Positions 9,361 to 20,793 of a stretch of 25,645 nucleotides of DNA are shown piece by piece. The position numbers were made by a program, and so were the translations under genes. The notes below the pieces were generated by a model. The model saw nothing but the letters and a program-made list of their open reading frames with translations, searched no databases and had not been told where the DNA came from. Location of the stretch: the IMG/VR virus record IMGVR_UViG_3300037307_000181, positions 66,523 to 92,167 of that record; one strand, written 5' to 3'. The stretch is from a virus. Every line of letters begins with the position of its first letter. The first letter of the stretch is position 1.

Positions 9361-10380
9361 ATGGAGTTGAGTGTACAATTTAATGATACGGCAGAGAAAG
9401 AAATTGTATCCCTGGTAAAAAAGATGGAGCTACTGCCCATCGTGGAGGCACTGAGGAATGACAGCAGTCTATCTGATGACCTGCGCAGGTCTCTATCATC
9501 TATGCTTGAAATCATTGTGGATATTTTTTCTTCTGATTTACCTGCTATAGAAAAAGACCCCGAAGAAACCCTGATGATTGTTAGTAGAGATATCAACTTG
9601 GCACGGCTGCTGCGTGAACGTGGTCTCTTCCGTCTATACCAATTGGCTAATGAGCGTGTTACTGTCGATCCTGAGACTGGTCAGCAGTCTGATGATGGTG
9701 TGCACATCCCCCTATTTATGTTGATCACAAACCCGATGACTAGCGCAAGGTTTGCTACCCAGGAGGAGTTTATCGGGTGGTTCTGTTCGGAGGCACACGT
9801 TGCCAGATCAATGGTGTTTGGCAGGTTCTCTACCATCGACAGAACCATGTCACTTGGGTACAGCCTGGAAGATACATTTAATCTGGTAATGAAGAAACCC
9901 TATGCTATCCGAGAGACCCTGAACCTAGTAGCTGAGTGGGAAAAGGGTGAACTGGTCAGCATCAATCCAGATGTGGCTGTACAAATTGCCAGGAAAATCT
10001 CACCTGATATAGCAGACCAGATTGAAATCCTGGCAGAGCAGGTGAAAAAAGATGACAGTCGAATGCACGAGTTATCAGATGCTATGAAACCTGTGATAGC
10101 AGACCTACTGCAAGAAGTAGCAGACCATGATCGTGCCAAAGATGCCCTGGAGTTTGTGCGCTATGATGTATTGGGCAAGCCGGAGATCGAGTATGAGTGG
10201 GATGATGACCTGGGAGCTTTGGTGATCACGTTCATTCAAAAGGGTATTGATGATACTGGTACTGAGCACATTATGGATGCTGTCAAAATACCTTTCGTTC
10301 CAGATATCATTACCCTGCCAGAAGAAGTCAAGGGAGACCTGATCCGCAGACTTCCGGTAAAAAATAAATATGTCTCTTGA
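9361..10380 (+). CDS. Hypothetical acidic, mostly helical protein (339 aa)
   Basis: GGAGG RBS and long ORF. No catalytic motif recognised. Confidence 0.75.
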   Translation: MELSVQFNDTAEKEIVSLVKKMELLPIVEALRNDSSLSDDLRRSLSSMLEIIVDIFSSDLPAIEKDPEETLMIVSRDINLARLLRERGLFRLYQLANERVTVDPETGQQSDDGVHIPLFMLITNPMTSARFATQEEFIGWFCSEAHVARSMVFGRFSTIDRTMSLGYSLEDTFNLVMKKPYAIRETLNLVAEWEKGELVSINPDVAVQIARKISPDIADQIEILAEQVKKDDSRMHELSDAMKPVIADLLQEVADHDRAKDALEFVRYDVLGKPEIEYEWDDDLGALVITFIQKGIDDTGTEHIMDAVKIPFVPDIITLPEEVKGDLIRRLPVKNKYVS

Positions 10381-10405
10381 CACAATTCAATATCTATGCT
10401 ATAAT
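10377..10405 (+). promoter_or_regulatory. Sigma70/sigmaA-type promoter
   Basis: TTGACA (overlapping the upstream stop), 17 nt spacer, TATAAT with extended TG. Confidence 0.85.
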
Positions 10406-10439
10406 TACAGTACGATAAATTGACAAGGAGAATAACTCT

Positions 10440-11282
10440 ATGACTAATCAAATTGTACAAGGCAGAAACTTTTTACGGGAATATTGTACGCTGACTGGCT
10501 TTACCATGAGTGAAGCCCTCACACAAATGCAAGCTGTGCTCCCTCCAGCCGCATACAAATCTATCCCAGGGAGCAATGCCGACCTAACTGACATTGATCC
10601 TAGCTACCTGACTGAGTGGGCTACTCGTCTCTTCGGTGCTTGTGGCATCGGCTGGTTCTATGACTATGCACCTGAAAGCCTGTCAATCGTAGCTACTGAA
10701 AAGACAGCAAAGAGTGGTCGCCAGTACACTAACTATGATGCACTTATCACACGCCTGGAACTGGTATACACCTACTTTGACAACGATGGAAACCAGCACT
10801 TCTCTACACCAATCGTTTCAAATGGTGGTAGCGGGAACGAGGATCGTGGCTATGCTGTTCGTGGTGCAATCACCAACGCTATCGGTGCTGCATTTGCTAA
10901 GTTGCTGTGGCAGCTACCTGTATACAAAGGTATTGTTACCCACCAGAACGCTGCTGAGAAATACAGCGCACAGCAGAAGAAAGCCGGAGTCAGTGGCAAC
11001 GTCAGTGAAACCAGCAAAGCTGCTGAGGTAAAACCAGAACTCAACTTGAGCCTGAAAGTTCCAGAGAACACGAACATCCCAACGGGTGGGCAAACTCTAG
11101 AGGCAGTCTGCAAAGACAAACAGTTTGGTGAAGCCACCCTGACCTTTCTGGCGGGAAGACGACCTAACGTAGCTGGTGTAGTCTTTGATCCAGCAGATGA
11201 CGAAGGCAAGCTGATCAAGGAGACCTGCAACGAAATCCTGGACTCAGGAAACTACGAAAAAACAAGTAAGAAAGCTAAGTAA
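10440..11282 (+). CDS. Rad52/Sak-like single-strand annealing protein
   Basis: LTDIDPSY..E.ATRLFGACGIGW and A..GAITNAI..A...L....VY match the Rad52/22 fold signature. Basic linker and variable C-terminus. Confidence 0.75.
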   Translation: MTNQIVQGRNFLREYCTLTGFTMSEALTQMQAVLPPAAYKSIPGSNADLTDIDPSYLTEWATRLFGACGIGWFYDYAPESLSIVATEKTAKSGRQYTNYDALITRLELVYTYFDNDGNQHFSTPIVSNGGSGNEDRGYAVRGAITNAIGAAFAKLLWQLPVYKGIVTHQNAAEKYSAQQKKAGVSGNVSETSKAAEVKPELNLSLKVPENTNIPTGGQTLEAVCKDKQFGEATLTFLAGRRPNVAGVVFDPADDEGKLIKETCNEILDSGNYEKTSKKAK

Positions 11283-11289
11283 TGCAACT

Positions 11290-11318
11290 AGCCTGGGAGA
11301 AATCCCAGGCTTTTATTT
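11290..11318 (+). terminator. Rho-independent terminator with GAAA tetraloop, ending the left arm
   Basis: AGCCTGGGA-GAAA-TCCCAGGCT followed by TTTATTT. Confidence 0.85.
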
Positions 11319-11420
11319 AAGTAAGTGATCTTCTGGTGACAACAAAGACCACCGCATAGTAATATTCCCCAAGTGCAGAATATGGTAAAATAGTGCAGAG
11401 GCTCAATGTCAGAGAGCCAC

Positions 11421-11460
11421 AAAAAAGACCACCCACCTGTGGGAAGTGAGCAGTCTTTTT
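11421..11460 (-). terminator. Probable (bidirectional) terminator downstream of the tRNA
   Basis: AAAAAGAC and GTCTTTTT enclose an inner CCCAC/GTGGG pair, giving U tracts on both strands. Confidence 0.55.
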
Positions 11461-11623
11461 GTAGAGAGAACCCTATATATGGGGGTAATGGCGAGGGTGG
11501 GACTTGAACCCACAACCAATGGCTTATGAGTCCACTGCTCCACCGTTGAGCTACCTCGCCTGATTTTATACCCCTATATATGGTGTTCTTCATCCCCATA
11601 GACCTATCTCATCCCACAGGTGG
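11433..11623. repeat. Nested inverted and direct repeats enclosing the tRNA; candidate attP region
   Basis: Perfect 12-bp inverted repeat CCACCTGTGGGA (11433-11444) / TCCCACAGGTGG (11612-11623). 12-bp direct repeat CCCTATATATGG (11471-11482 and 11572-11583). Confidence 0.7.
11489..11560 (-). tRNA. tRNA with CAU anticodon (elongator Met or lysidine-modified Ile2); CCA not encoded
   Basis: Reverse complement folds as GGCGAGG TA GCTC-AACGGTG-GAGC A GTGGA-CTCATAA-GCCAT TGGTT GTGGG-TTCAAGT-CCCAC CCTCGCC A. Not an initiator: G1-C72 is paired and the anticodon stem lacks three G-C pairs. Confidence 0.93.
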
Positions 11624-11655
11624 CACTACTTTTCCAGCCTTCGGAGGAGGCCACC

Positions 11656-12585
11656 ATGAACGTAGAGCAAGGGTCATCAAAACAAGAAGAAGAATACTAT
11701 ATAGAACCGATGGTAAAAGCATTCCTTTTGGACTGCAAAGCACGTAGTCTCGCCAGGGGTACAATCTACTTCTATGAGACAAAGCTATTCCTGTTTGTCA
11801 GGCACTGTGCACAAAACCAACTGTGGAAATTCACAGACCTGAGCACAGGCGATGTGCGTCAATTCCTGGCAGATATGCACGACAAGGGTCACAACAAAGG
11901 CGGCGTATGGGGCATCTACCGAGCACTAAAAACATTCCTGTTCTGGTGGGAGAACGAGGTCGAGCCACCCAACTGGAAGAATCCAATCCGCAAGATCAAG
12001 ACTCCAGATATCCCTAAGGAAATCCTCGATCCTGTAGAAATAGATGACCTGGACGATCTGCTTGACGTGTGCCAGCGGGGTACATTCACAGGGGATCGAG
12101 ATCGTGCTATCTTCATGTGCCTGTTTGACACTGGTGCACGTGCACAAGAGTTTCTAGATATTGACCTATCCGATGTTCGCATCACAACGGGGGAAATCAC
12201 AATCCACAGCGGCAAAGGGGGAAAGACACGCCAAGTCTACCTTGGCAGTAAGAGCCGCAAATCACTTCGAACCTACCTGAAATACCGAACAGATTCACAG
12301 CCAGCTTTATGGGTCACAGACAACCAGGAGGATCGCCTAACCTACTGGGGTCTCAGGCAGATTCTCAGGCGCAGGTCTGAGAAAGCCATGCTCACCCACG
12401 AGCTAACCTTGCACAGCTTCCGCAGAGGCTTCGCCCTGAACATGCTGCGCAATGGGGCAGACATCTATGCCATTCAAGGACTCATGGGACACGAGACTCT
12501 AACCATCCTGAGCCGATACATCAAGCAGACGGATGCAGACCGAGCAGCAGCCCATAGACTAGGATCACCTGTTGACAACAAATAA
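11656..12585 (+). CDS. int: Tyrosine recombinase / phage integrase (XerC/D-like)
   Basis: Catalytic set R (DTGARAQE), K (GKGGK), HxxR (LHSFRR), H (LMGH) and Y (SRY), plus an N-terminal core-binding domain. GGAGGAGG RBS before ATG 11656. Confidence 0.95.
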   Translation: MNVEQGSSKQEEEYYIEPMVKAFLLDCKARSLARGTIYFYETKLFLFVRHCAQNQLWKFTDLSTGDVRQFLADMHDKGHNKGGVWGIYRALKTFLFWWENEVEPPNWKNPIRKIKTPDIPKEILDPVEIDDLDDLLDVCQRGTFTGDRDRAIFMCLFDTGARAQEFLDIDLSDVRITTGEITIHSGKGGKTRQVYLGSKSRKSLRTYLKYRTDSQPALWVTDNQEDRLTYWGLRQILRRRSEKAMLTHELTLHSFRRGFALNMLRNGADIYAIQGLMGHETLTILSRYIKQTDADRAAAHRLGSPVDNK

Positions 12586-17213: not shown

Positions 17214-17235
17214 AGACCCGTATTTCTACGGGTCT
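17214..17235 (-). other. Perfect GAAA-tetraloop hairpin without a U tract
   Basis: - strand AGACCCGTA-GAAA-TACGGGTCT, overlapping the ligase stop codon. Confidence 0.65.
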
Positions 17236-19411
17236 ACTCTGAACCACCGTCTGAAAGATACATATCACGCAAGGTGATGATGTCTGTGTTTTTTACAAAG
17301 TCCAAGTCAGCAATACTCTTGACCCAGGCGTAAAACCTATTCTGTGTTGGTGTGTTCAACCACTCCGTGTGCACCTGACGACGACGAGCTACAACGTCCT
17401 TCAAGCCACGAAGCATCTTCCAGGTCTTGTAGTACAGGAACTTGATCTTGAACTGGAAACCATCTGCACGCTCCACAACAACACCTTCGAAACGAGAACC
17501 GTTTATACGTCCAAACTCATAGTCATTCTCTGCACTTTCAACGAAGGCATAGAACTCTGCCCAGTTGTTGAACACATCTACAACAGGCTTGCAGTAAAAC
17601 CTAAAGTAGTTAGCCACTGCAATCAGGTCAGGATATGCGTATTTCTGGAACTCAAAGGTACGATAAACAACATCCAGAAGAACAACGTGTGGGTGATTGT
17701 ACTTGATGATGTGTGGATCATTGACAGGATCAACCACTTCGAAAACCATAGATACGTTGTTTTCTTTTAGGAAGTCCTTCAACTGATCGAAGTGCTCGGT
17801 GCTGCTCAGGATATCGTAGAACCACTTCTGGTATTCTCCCTGGTTAGTGCTCTTGGTTGCCACAAACAAAGAGTCATCCTCAGAGTTGTATCCTACAATA
17901 CCCAAGTACCCGTTGATCTTCATGTATGCCACAGCAGGAAACTGCATGGTGCGGCGCAGGTTCTCAACTTTGGTCTCATCACGCTCACCCAGGTTGAAAA
18001 ACTTCTCGTAAGAACGAGCGACAACCTCTTTTGTTGCAACGTTGACGAACAAACCACGAGCCTTGGTTGTGATGTCATCCCACTTACCTTTCAAGAAAGC
18101 TTCACGAGTGAAGTTGAAAGAAGAGATATTGTTGCCAAGGTCTTTCTCGTAGATGTACTTACTCTGGCGCATTGCCTCGATGATGTCAACAGACTGGGTG
18201 TTCACTTCAATAACCTCGTCACTACCACGCTGAGCAAAGGTATTGTTTTTGATCTCAACTGGGCTAAATCCATCATTGTCCAGGATAACCGCACGGAACA
18301 TTCCACCAAACTCTACCTTCTCGCAGATGTTGAAGCAGCGACCATTCTGAACTGGTGATGATGCAATGTTTCGATGACCGTGCACCTGATAGAAGTTGTC
18401 TGGAGTGTTTCTCATAAAAGACTCTTCAACAACATCAACATCCTCATACTTGCCAACACCCTTTATCATTTCATCTGTAGCTGTAAAAGGTGATGGGAGC
18501 ACAGGCAGCCCACCGTGACAGACAAAAACAACTTTTCCACGATACTCGTAGTATGCCATCTGACCCAGGCGGCGGTAGAACTCACGCATCTCTGACTTAT
18601 CAACACCAGCATTGATGAACTGTGGTTTGGTAACGTGCTCAAACTCTTTTGACTTAGCCTCTTCGTTGTTTGCCCAGTACCACAGCCAGCGTTCGTGGTT
18701 GCCCTCCAGAAACAAAACGTTTGGCTTACCTACGAACTGCTGCAAGAAACGAAAAGTCTCAACATTCTGGATACCACGATCAAAGTAGTCTCCAGTGAAG
18801 ATATAGAACTCATCTGAGTTGAAGCCAAATGCATCAAAGTAGTCTACCAGCGGATCAACACAGCCGTGTATATCACCCAGGTGGTGGATACGATTCCACT
18901 TGTTGAAGTCAAAAGTATTTAGCTCATGGAACAAGCTCCAGAACTCTTCTGGTGTGATCTGCTTTGTCCAAGTAGGAGTTGGCTGTGTCTCGATTTTGCT
19001 AACCATTGTCAAAATAGCATCCTCTGGAACACGCTTGTGCACAGGTCGTGCAGCGTTGCGGCGAAGAACATCGTCGGTTGGGATATCAAACTGAACTGTG
19101 TATGCACGATAGCGATAGTGTTGGCACAAGTCCTTATACTTGTTGATCATTCCAGCACGTGCGTGTGTAGCATCGACAATCGTGAACTCACCACGTGCCA
19201 TACGCTCCTGTAGCAAACCAAACATCCAGTTCCACACCTTGCTGTCGTTCTTGTTTGTGATCTCCAGTTCCCCACGAACGTTCAGGGTTGGAGACTGAAA
19301 CATCATACGAACATCATCGGCAGAGATGGTGTATGGCTGCAAGCCGTTCTCAGCGATCCAAGTTGATTTTCCAGCACCTGCTGGTGCACGAAGTAAAATA
19401 AGATTACGCAC
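17234..19411 (-). CDS. RNA repair enzyme: polynucleotide kinase + metallophosphoesterase + Rnl1-type RNA ligase
   Basis: P-loop APAGAGKST, SADDVR, VDATH, RNAAR. Phosphoesterase GDIHG, GDYFDRG, GNHE, HGG, HGH. Ligase ARGLF, KFFN, KINGYLG, FE, EGVV, KIK. GTG start with GAGGAG RBS. Confidence 0.9.
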   Translation of the reverse strand: MRNLILLRAPAGAGKSTWIAENGLQPYTISADDVRMMFQSPTLNVRGELEITNKNDSKVWNWMFGLLQERMARGEFTIVDATHARAGMINKYKDLCQHYRYRAYTVQFDIPTDDVLRRNAARPVHKRVPEDAILTMVSKIETQPTPTWTKQITPEEFWSLFHELNTFDFNKWNRIHHLGDIHGCVDPLVDYFDAFGFNSDEFYIFTGDYFDRGIQNVETFRFLQQFVGKPNVLFLEGNHERWLWYWANNEEAKSKEFEHVTKPQFINAGVDKSEMREFYRRLGQMAYYEYRGKVVFVCHGGLPVLPSPFTATDEMIKGVGKYEDVDVVEESFMRNTPDNFYQVHGHRNIASSPVQNGRCFNICEKVEFGGMFRAVILDNDGFSPVEIKNNTFAQRGSDEVIEVNTQSVDIIEAMRQSKYIYEKDLGNNISSFNFTREAFLKGKWDDITTKARGLFVNVATKEVVARSYEKFFNLGERDETKVENLRRTMQFPAVAYMKINGYLGIVGYNSEDDSLFVATKSTNQGEYQKWFYDILSSTEHFDQLKDFLKENNVSMVFEVVDPVNDPHIIKYNHPHVVLLDVVYRTFEFQKYAYPDLIAVANYFRFYCKPVVDVFNNWAEFYAFVESAENDYEFGRINGSRFEGVVVERADGFQFKIKFLYYKTWKMLRGLKDVVARRRQVHTEWLNTPTQNRFYAWVKSIADLDFVKNTDIITLRDMYLSDGGSE

Positions 19412-19441
19412 TATATTTTCTCCTCATTAGTTAGTACAATA

Positions 19442-19470
19442 ATTATAGCATAAATATTGTACTACGTCAA
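19442..19470 (-). promoter_or_regulatory. Sigma70/sigmaA-type promoter overlapped by a 9-bp inverted repeat
   Basis: - strand TTGACG, 17 nt spacer, TATAAT with extended TG. TAGTACAAT (19432-19440) / ATTGTACTA (19456-19464). Confidence 0.85.
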
Positions 19471-20726: not shown

Positions 20727-20757
20727 TCTATCCTCCTATATATGGTATGGTTCTATA

Positions 20758-20786
20758 ATTATAGCACAGATATGGGATTATGTCAA
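20758..20786 (-). promoter_or_regulatory. Sigma70/sigmaA-type promoter
   Basis: - strand TTGACA, 17 nt spacer, TATAAT with extended TG. Confidence 0.85.
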
Positions 20787-20793
20787 CGCTAAC

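Follow-up and report, generated by a model that had tools for sequence, protein, structure and literature searches.

A whole tRNA(CAU) gene between NrdR-type box pairs as the probable attachment site of an Anaerolineae phage

What a complete tRNA gene does at the centre of a long inverted repeat, directly beside the gene of a tyrosine recombinase, is the question raised by a stretch of 25,645 nucleotides of viral DNA (positions 66,523 to 92,167 of the IMG/VR record IMGVR_UViG_3300037307_000181). This stretch is called the window here, and positions are counted in it unless the full record (G000:C1) is named. The record is 92,167 bases long, its ends overlapping by 154 nt, and contains 33 tRNA genes and one tmRNA. 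Its products include major head, portal, terminase and ribonucleotide reductase proteins, which mark it as a tailed-phage-type genome. The tRNA considered here is the only one of the 33 on the minus strand. Viral scans with the integrase, the neighbouring exonuclease or the DNA polymerase retrieved no related phage, and no GenBank phage matched across the arms of the repeat. The features of the locus are collected in Table 1.

Table 1. Features at and around the tRNA(CAU) locus, in window coordinates (int, integrase gene; a dot marks features without strand)
Feature	Position	Strand	Basis
Repeated strong phage promoter (also elsewhere in the genome)	10371-10420; 19430-19470, 20745-20790	+; -, -	
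Exonuclease-like ORF upstream of the hairpin	10440-11282	+	PHROG match
Terminator-like hairpin closing the upstream gene	11290-11311	+	Consensus scan
Copy of the host promoter of the same tRNA gene, toward int, opposite to the tRNA	11326-11370	+	Match to host loci
Candidate degenerate extra half-site copy, 128 bp from the loop	11394-11404	+	8/11 either-half match, background 0.9% per position
Intrinsic-terminator-like hairpin 3' of the tRNA, spanning the left 12-bp repeat	11417-11464	-	-23.7 kcal/mol, z -4.4
NrdR-type box, outer left, containing the left 12-bp repeat	11430-11445	.	12.2 bits, genome rank 5
NrdR-type box, inner left, 40 bp from the outer	11470-11485	.	21.3 bits, genome rank 1
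Whole tRNA(CAU), putative block common to attP and attB	11489-11560	-	ARAGORN; Rfam RF00005, 68.4 bits; host match
Predicted recombination core, two half-sites around the 7-nt loop 11524-11530	11515-11539	.	Fragment ends in relatives; symmetry axis 11528
NrdR-type box, inner right	11571-11586	.	17.1 bits, genome rank 2
NrdR-type box, outer right, containing the right 12-bp repeat, 40 bp from the inner	11611-11626	.	7.7 bits, genome rank 20, weakest of the four
Tyrosine recombinase, 309 aa, XerC/D-like, without detected arm-binding domain	11656-12585	+	Pfam, structure and residue comparison
Candidate degenerate extra half-site copy, 144 bp from the loop, in the first int codons	11666-11676	+	8/11 either-half match

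The origin of the tRNA emerged from the comparison with candidate host genomes that the initial annotation had proposed. A degenerate pattern of the tRNA retrieved 86 loci from GTDB, the titles of which read Anaerolineaceae or Chloroflexota in almost every case and Atribacteria in one; one of the loci, an Anaerolineaceae chromosomal gene (L040), is identical at 72/72 positions, and the other 85 differ at 1-3. In a 5.4-Mb single-contig relative (G087) three CAU tRNAs were found. By general tRNA identity rules the other two look like initiator and Ile2 types, so that the site tRNA is likely, by elimination, an elongator tRNA(Met). The probable source sample contains a 71-nt unitig that coincides exactly with 11490-11560; its depth is 20.5, versus 5.9-9.4 for the phage contigs, and sequences other than the phage flanks branch off at its ends. 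This unitig is the shared block and not a junction, and contigs cannot phase across the 71-nt repeat; no integrated copy or attL/attR junction of the phage was seen in the source-sample contigs, which break there. Short repeats of the tRNA 3' end occur within 80 nt after several host copies (L007, L009, L046, L060, L073 and others) and were likely left behind by other elements that use this gene.

The adjoining int gene starts at an ATG (11656) preceded by a GGAGG ribosome-binding site at 11643, and its product matches PF00589 (E 1.5e-29). The catalytic residues R162, K187, H253, R256, H279 and Y288 are all present; across 24 sequences H279 is nearly invariant and the other five are invariant. 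Pfam detects SAM-like and catalytic domains only in the 309-aa protein, and no N-terminal arm-binding domain; the nearest solved structures are XerC-like, XerA and XerD. GenBank phages hold no close integrase, the best reaching ~33% identity over part of the protein. With this size, no such domain and no arm-type sites, a lambda-type heterobivalent integrase was rejected, and a 103-aa minus-strand ORF over the tRNA, which has no family match, was dropped. Since the tRNA is host-identical and adjoins an intact XerC/D-like integrase, the site is most likely an attP, and its assignment as the attP of an Anaerolineae phage is made with high confidence.

How such a site operates can be approached through relatives of the integrase, which were found in 45/401 host-family genomes (E <=1e-70) and 16/401 host-class genomes (E <=1e-55); the locus set was extended by 10 of the 21 viral loci and, from metagenomes, by the best 80 of 361 loci. 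Removal of 9 duplicates from 166 loci left 157 non-redundant ones, and exclusion of 7 with <=60 nt upstream left 150. A tRNA or tRNA fragment lies directly upstream of int in 121/150 loci; the statistics exclude the 29/150 without a tRNA match and 2 with low identity or no loop. Among the 121, the tRNA is represented by a 3' part in 23, a 5' part in 11, a middle part in 5 and the whole gene in 82, of which 51 run in the same direction as int and 31, the window included, in the opposite one, a class that overstates whole-gene duplication, since some of its members are probably ordinary host genes; candidates are the 'full, minus' loci L154, L229, L239, L241, L251 and L254, which have host-like promoters. 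Eight complete islands of 4.0-11.6 kb, with integrases 46-54% identical, could be delimited: 5/8 (4.0-6.9 kb) lie between two whole tRNA copies and 3/8 between a whole copy and a 3' fragment. In one island the duplication extends 13 nt past the tRNA 5' end, which suggests that the 5' half was captured from the host.

The fragments also locate the crossover. Relative to the loop centre, none of the 21 scored 3' fragments begins later than -3 and none of the 11 5' fragments stops short of +4, so that their common part is the anticodon loop and the crossover is predicted there; a crossover near the tRNA 5' end was dropped, as the fragment ends converge on the loop. A whole-tRNA attP appears, with good support from these comparisons, to be a recurrent state in the integrase family. 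The initial annotation had proposed an attP with a whole tRNA as core, whose integration gives two intact tRNAs; the 72/72 host identity and the two-copy islands (5/8) support this, and the wider interpretation is only partly supported.

Three kinds of relatives depart from this pattern. A 5' tRNA half with the host promoter precedes the boxes described below and int at L104, L114, L129, L196, L222, L227, L231, L232 and L238. By analogy with tRNA-dependent lysogeny, such elements must presumably rebuild the tRNA gene at their other end or complement it, and the 5'-fragment relatives may behave like that system. At L155, ~197 nt upstream of int residue 20, a 3' tRNA fragment has loop letters that differ from the cognate and is possibly a secondary-site insertion. 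Small elements with two paralogous integrases, divergent about one att site or pointing inward from both ends, occur at L151, L163, L225, L228 and L243 (L185/L150 by matching flanks); a XerC/XerD-like division of labour is possible.

The inverted repeat that drew attention to the site is real. As had been described initially, the tRNA lies between arms of about 55 nt that are imperfect reverse complements, with a perfect 12-bp inverted repeat at their outer ends (11433-11444 / 11612-11623) and the right arm ending about 20 nt (precisely 19-20) ahead of the integrase GGAGG. The arms, 11433-11487 and 11569-11623, are complementary at 40/55 positions (73%). When inverted repeats of 55 nt separated by 30-150 nt are compared across the 92-kb phage genome, this one comes out on top, and it exceeds the 31-33 pairs of the best such repeat in 8 Markov-resampled genomes. 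The symmetry axis falls at 11528, within the anticodon loop, and not at the tRNA midpoint, so that the element is symmetric as an inverted repeat but not about the middle of the tRNA. Pairing is densest in four palindromic 16-mers (outer boxes 12/16, inner boxes 13/16); between the boxes the spacers pair at 13/24 (binomial p 0.004), and beyond the arms 14/50 positions pair.

Arm complementarity is not conserved: the arms of 17 relatives pair at 21-33 of 55 positions, and a null of unrelated arms has a mean of 23 and a maximum of 31. The initial annotation had itself named loss of the complementarity in relatives as a refuting outcome, and for this part of its proposal that is the outcome obtained. 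The far arm at the site has a 40-bp box geometry like that of the int-side arm, while the far arms of relatives with the same tRNA type have 31-32 bp, so that one arm was probably copied from the other in the phage lineage; the strong arm-to-arm similarity is thus probably due to local duplication or quasi-palindrome correction and is not a conserved feature. This bears on two further suggestions of the initial annotation, an integrase-invertible tRNA cassette between the 12-bp repeats and a long RNA stem that presents the tRNA or controls int translation. Both draw on the 40/55 complementarity and on a strong predicted fold (z -7.9 and -5.8, the tRNA's own stems included), and a tRNA direction relative to int that varies across the family and a host promoter copy lying backwards to the tRNA, hinting at past inversion, may be added. 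However, besides the missing conservation, there is no bias towards G-U pairs among the mismatches of the arms (3 for the plus strand, 2 for the minus strand, 13 of other kinds), the 12-bp repeat is contained in an NrdR-type box, and the orientation flips among 85-90% identical integrases come at least partly from twin-integrase elements. In the source sample, a contig runs unbranched across the right outer repeat and no inversion joints are listed, at a low depth of ~6 and with the left arm not covered. Inversion at the 12-bp repeat would also break the minus-strand terminator, which argues against the cassette. The stem was rejected, active inversion at the 12-bp repeat was dropped as no sign of it appeared in these contigs, and together the two are barely credible.

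The initial annotation overlooked that the crossover maps to the anticodon loop, as predicted from relatives, and that the arms are, by sequence match, pairs of NrdR boxes. An unseeded palindromic search on 35 host nrdR promoters returned the motif CCcCcAtATaTgGgGG, with a second box 30-31 bp away in 31/35; in the hosts, nrdR is immediately followed by a ribonucleotide reductase gene. The four boxes at the site are 16-bp partial palindromes that match this motif (C4, G13), and both pairs have 24-bp spacers, 40 bp box to box. The central 12 bp of the outer left box are identical to a box in one host nrdR promoter (L119), where the same outer 12-mer stands 31 bp from a near-identical inner box, and the inner right box agrees at 15/16 positions with E. 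coli nrdAB box 1 as printed in Table 1 of PMC13584703. nrdR was present in 5/5 and 40/41 sampled genomes of the probable host family, and no match to nrdR was found in the phage genome. No reductase gene lies near the box pairs and no promoter lies over the boxes in the window, the nearest promoter ending 65 bp to the left of the outer left box. None of the 25 top-ranking NrdR boxes lies upstream of the ribonucleotide reductase gene that the phage itself encodes (G000:C1 36061-37974), while the att site has four boxes.

According to the available text of the sources, NrdR binds box pairs with 14-17 and 24-27 bp spacers and puts two 90-degree kinks in DNA (PMC12051234), requires dATP and ATP for DNA binding (PMC9110341) and binds foreign boxes (PMC13584703). 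The accessible part of PMC12051234 also describes one natural 24-bp-spaced pair that was bound poorly; 24 bp is close to the limit of the spacers tolerated, and this and the weak outer right box count against the NrdR reading. The boxes share with the NrdR operators of these three papers, in their available text, the 16-bp partial palindromes, C4/G13 and pairs set 3-4 helical turns apart, and with host nrdR promoters the motif itself; they differ in that the two pairs are symmetric about a recombination core, do not lie over a promoter and have no reductase gene near.

The boxes recur in relatives, which were grouped in clusters at 70% identity with one box per cluster for phase; L032 and L054 were dropped from the host control, and L151 and L163 from the far-side phase test. 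Int-side boxes of >=9 bits occur in 40/65 integrase clusters and are absent in 25/65, compared with 3/78 (3') and 0/82 (5') host tRNA flanks. In complete islands, boxes of >=5 bits are found in 13/16 element arms versus 1/16 host flanks. The spacing of the pairs is 31-32 or 40-42 bp in 23/24 clusters, and these family spacings, as measured on the sequences, are within the spacer ranges given as NrdR-bound in the accessible text of PMC12051234. At a period of 10.3 bp the boxes are phased to the anticodon (R 0.68, n=40, p ~1e-8), and much less to int residue 20 (R 0.24) or the tRNA edge (R 0.23); p values are optimistic, because clusters at 70% are still related and the period was picked among values tried. 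The int-proximal box keeps phase with the predicted start codon as well (R 0.56, n=39, p 5e-6), in part since some boxes adjoin the ribosome-binding site or constitute it, so that the int side alone cannot separate a recombination role from gene control. On arms without adjacent int the boxes are again phased to the loop (R 0.82, n=12).

It is on this point that the most serious alternative turns, namely that the attP is the same and NrdR controls transcription only, blocking read-through into int from 11326-11370 in the circular phage or from the host tRNA promoter in plus-type lysogens, the far-side boxes being relics of twin-integrase elements. Repression is the tested role of NrdR, box-to-start distances cluster and are phased, the promoter at 11326-11370 points through all four boxes toward int, and twin elements with divergent int genes exist, in which the boxes on both sides precede an int gene. 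However, no promoter overlaps the boxes in 22 minus-type int arms (median 2.1 bits, versus 2.9 for coding background and 9.6 for host nrdR promoters). Far-side boxes persist without a second int at 9/10 loci (one of these, L163, looks twin-type with a 139 nt flank) and are phased to the loop, and repression needs neither phasing to the cut point nor the outer half-sites described next. Control of transcription alone is accordingly rated as rather unlikely, though worth serious attention.

Relatives have a further copy of their own core half-site on the far side of the outer box, at 121-157 bp from the loop. These copies match their own target tRNA at 8.8/11 positions versus 7.3 for non-cognate ones (24 clusters, p 1.4e-4), have one orientation in 18/19 cases and occur on both arms of minus-type islands. 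The two copies in the window are weak, degenerate candidates by sequence. The left one has counterparts in relatives at 125-127 bp; the right one, at 7/11 to a single half, is at background level, and its position and orientation agree with those of the nearest same-tRNA relative (L146: +143, 10/11). The boxes are constant across target tRNAs and the extra half-sites vary with the target. This difference weighs against the idea that the boxes are recognised by a different protein whose palindrome is similar, or serve as arm sites of the integrase itself. The motif is short and partly degenerate and NrdR binding is only predicted, which leaves some room for such a binder; but the boxes match those of host nrdR promoters, the outer 12-mer being identical, the pairs have canonical NrdR spacings, and the integrase has no detected arm-binding domain. 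Another binder is therefore considered very unlikely.

The preferred reading, towards which the comparisons lean with moderate confidence, is that of an attP made of a whole host-identical tRNA with an NrdR box pair on each side, at which host NrdR would be a DNA-bending helper of the integrase. The comparisons show that the tRNA is a copy of the host gene and that related elements sit between two tRNA copies. The integrase would cut at the anticodon loop, as judged from the fragment ends. Integration would then produce, at one end, host promoter, tRNA and phage terminator and, at the other, int, arm, tRNA and host terminator, with both tRNAs intact. On the arms, identified as box pairs by sequence match, a dATP/ATP-loaded NrdR tetramer on each pair would kink the arm and fold it back, so that extra integrase subunits on the outer half-site copies could take part in the synapse, in a way comparable to the action of IHF at lambda attP. 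Such folding would stand in for the missing arm-binding domain of the integrase. More speculatively, high dATP and slow DNA synthesis would favour integration. Whether NrdR is an accessory factor for widespread Anaerolineae arm-less integrases in general, tying integration and excision to the dATP level, is regarded as evenly balanced.

Borrowed host factors have precedents: lambda attP uses IHF and, in Xer recombination, ColE1 cer uses ArgR/PepA and pSC101 psi uses ArcA/PepA. The likeness would lie in a host DNA-bending regulator that shapes the synapse of a tyrosine recombinase; the factor here would differ in being NrdR, a dATP sensor, the target is a tRNA gene, and there are no lambda-type arm sites. 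A further parallel is TnpI at the internal resolution site of Tn4430, where, in the accessible text of PMC2847244, directly repeated recombinase motifs outside the core are accessory sites. TnpI thus shares the extra recombinase-binding motifs but resolves cointegrates, and no host factor is named in that text; the extra half-sites here lie beyond the NrdR box pairs, on both arms. As regards tRNA-dependent lysogeny, the available part of PMC10865867 describes a phage-borne tRNA of the target isotype that likewise secures host tRNA after integration, but with a core of ~10 bp, the complementing tRNA elsewhere and lambda-like integrases; here the tRNA itself is the att block.

The site belongs with the anticodon-centred tRNA integrases, yet it lacks their fragment signature and is not lambda-type. 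It shares with Islander site A, as presented in the available text of PMC4383910, a tyrosine recombinase next to a tRNA-derived att, a crossover in the anticodon loop and restoration of the gene upon integration; it differs in having a whole gene and not a fragment in attP, and a XerC/D-like enzyme without detected arm-binding domain. In the same text, Islander rejects hits within a full-length tRNA. The fragment signature is absent here, where the tRNA is whole, as it is at both ends of 5/8 islands; since fragment finders of this type filter out islands with two whole tRNAs, the family is probably undercounted and its second tRNAs miscounted as host genes.

A literature search, mostly of non-subscription journals, found no published link between NrdR boxes and att sites. 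If the preferred reading is true, integration would be gated directly by metabolism, through a nucleotide-sensing repressor inside the recombination site, and NrdR, which is known for repressing ribonucleotide reductase genes, would have a second function; host-state sensing by temperate elements is mostly known via DNA-damage repressors and general DNA-bending proteins. A dATP-switchable integrase without arm domain could also serve engineering. Because NrdR proteins bind foreign boxes, according to the available text of PMC13584703, the model would be testable with three purified parts.

Transcription signals around the site fit into this scheme to different degrees. The minus-strand terminator-like hairpin folds on the tRNA strand only (z 0.0 on the plus strand) and would end transcription from the host promoter at attL. 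The promoter copy at 11326-11370, with a -35-like element at 11336-11341 and a -10 at 11360-11365, is identical at 40/45 positions to the tRNA promoter in 2/86 host loci (L012 and L021, E 6e-9), matches genome G004 at E 2.6e-8 and has the top promoter score near the site, in a model trained on these host promoters. It would be a candidate int promoter, active only in the circular genome. It faces the 3' end of the intact tRNA, and this backward orientation hints at a past rearrangement or inversion. As an alternative to a half-site, 11394-11404 could be what is left of the 5' end of a tRNA formerly located behind the promoter copy, a reading that is suggestive only, 323/5000 shuffles scoring equal or better for tRNA-relic content, with no position constraint. 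The att-adjacent promoter differs in type from a strong repeated phage promoter (TTGACA ... TGCTATAAT) that stands ahead of many gene blocks.

Finally, the surrounding genome suggests another use of the site, as one that mainly resolves dimers of a circular plasmid-like prophage in the manner of cer or psi, with NrdR as accessory factor. The enzyme is XerC/D-like, a ParB-like gene is present in the window, and the cumulative GC skew peaks inside the att tRNA (G000:C1 78022, window 11500), 45.7 kb from its minimum at 32295 on a 92.0-kb circle, hence almost exactly opposite. However, the skew plateau at the tRNA is ~2 kb wide and coincides with converging transcription, the relatives are chromosomal islands at tRNA genes, and the host-identical tRNA and the minus-strand terminator serve integration; dimer resolution as the main role is thus highly improbable. 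Elsewhere in the window, 17234-19411 on the minus strand encodes a 725-aa Pnkp-like kinase-phosphatase-RNA ligase fusion, which likely repairs tRNAs; the tRNA set of the phage is nearly complete. Two tRNAs of this set have the unusual anticodons AAA (Phe) and ACA (Cys) (G000:C1 64092-64166 and 64816-64891) and lie next to copies with GAA and GCA.
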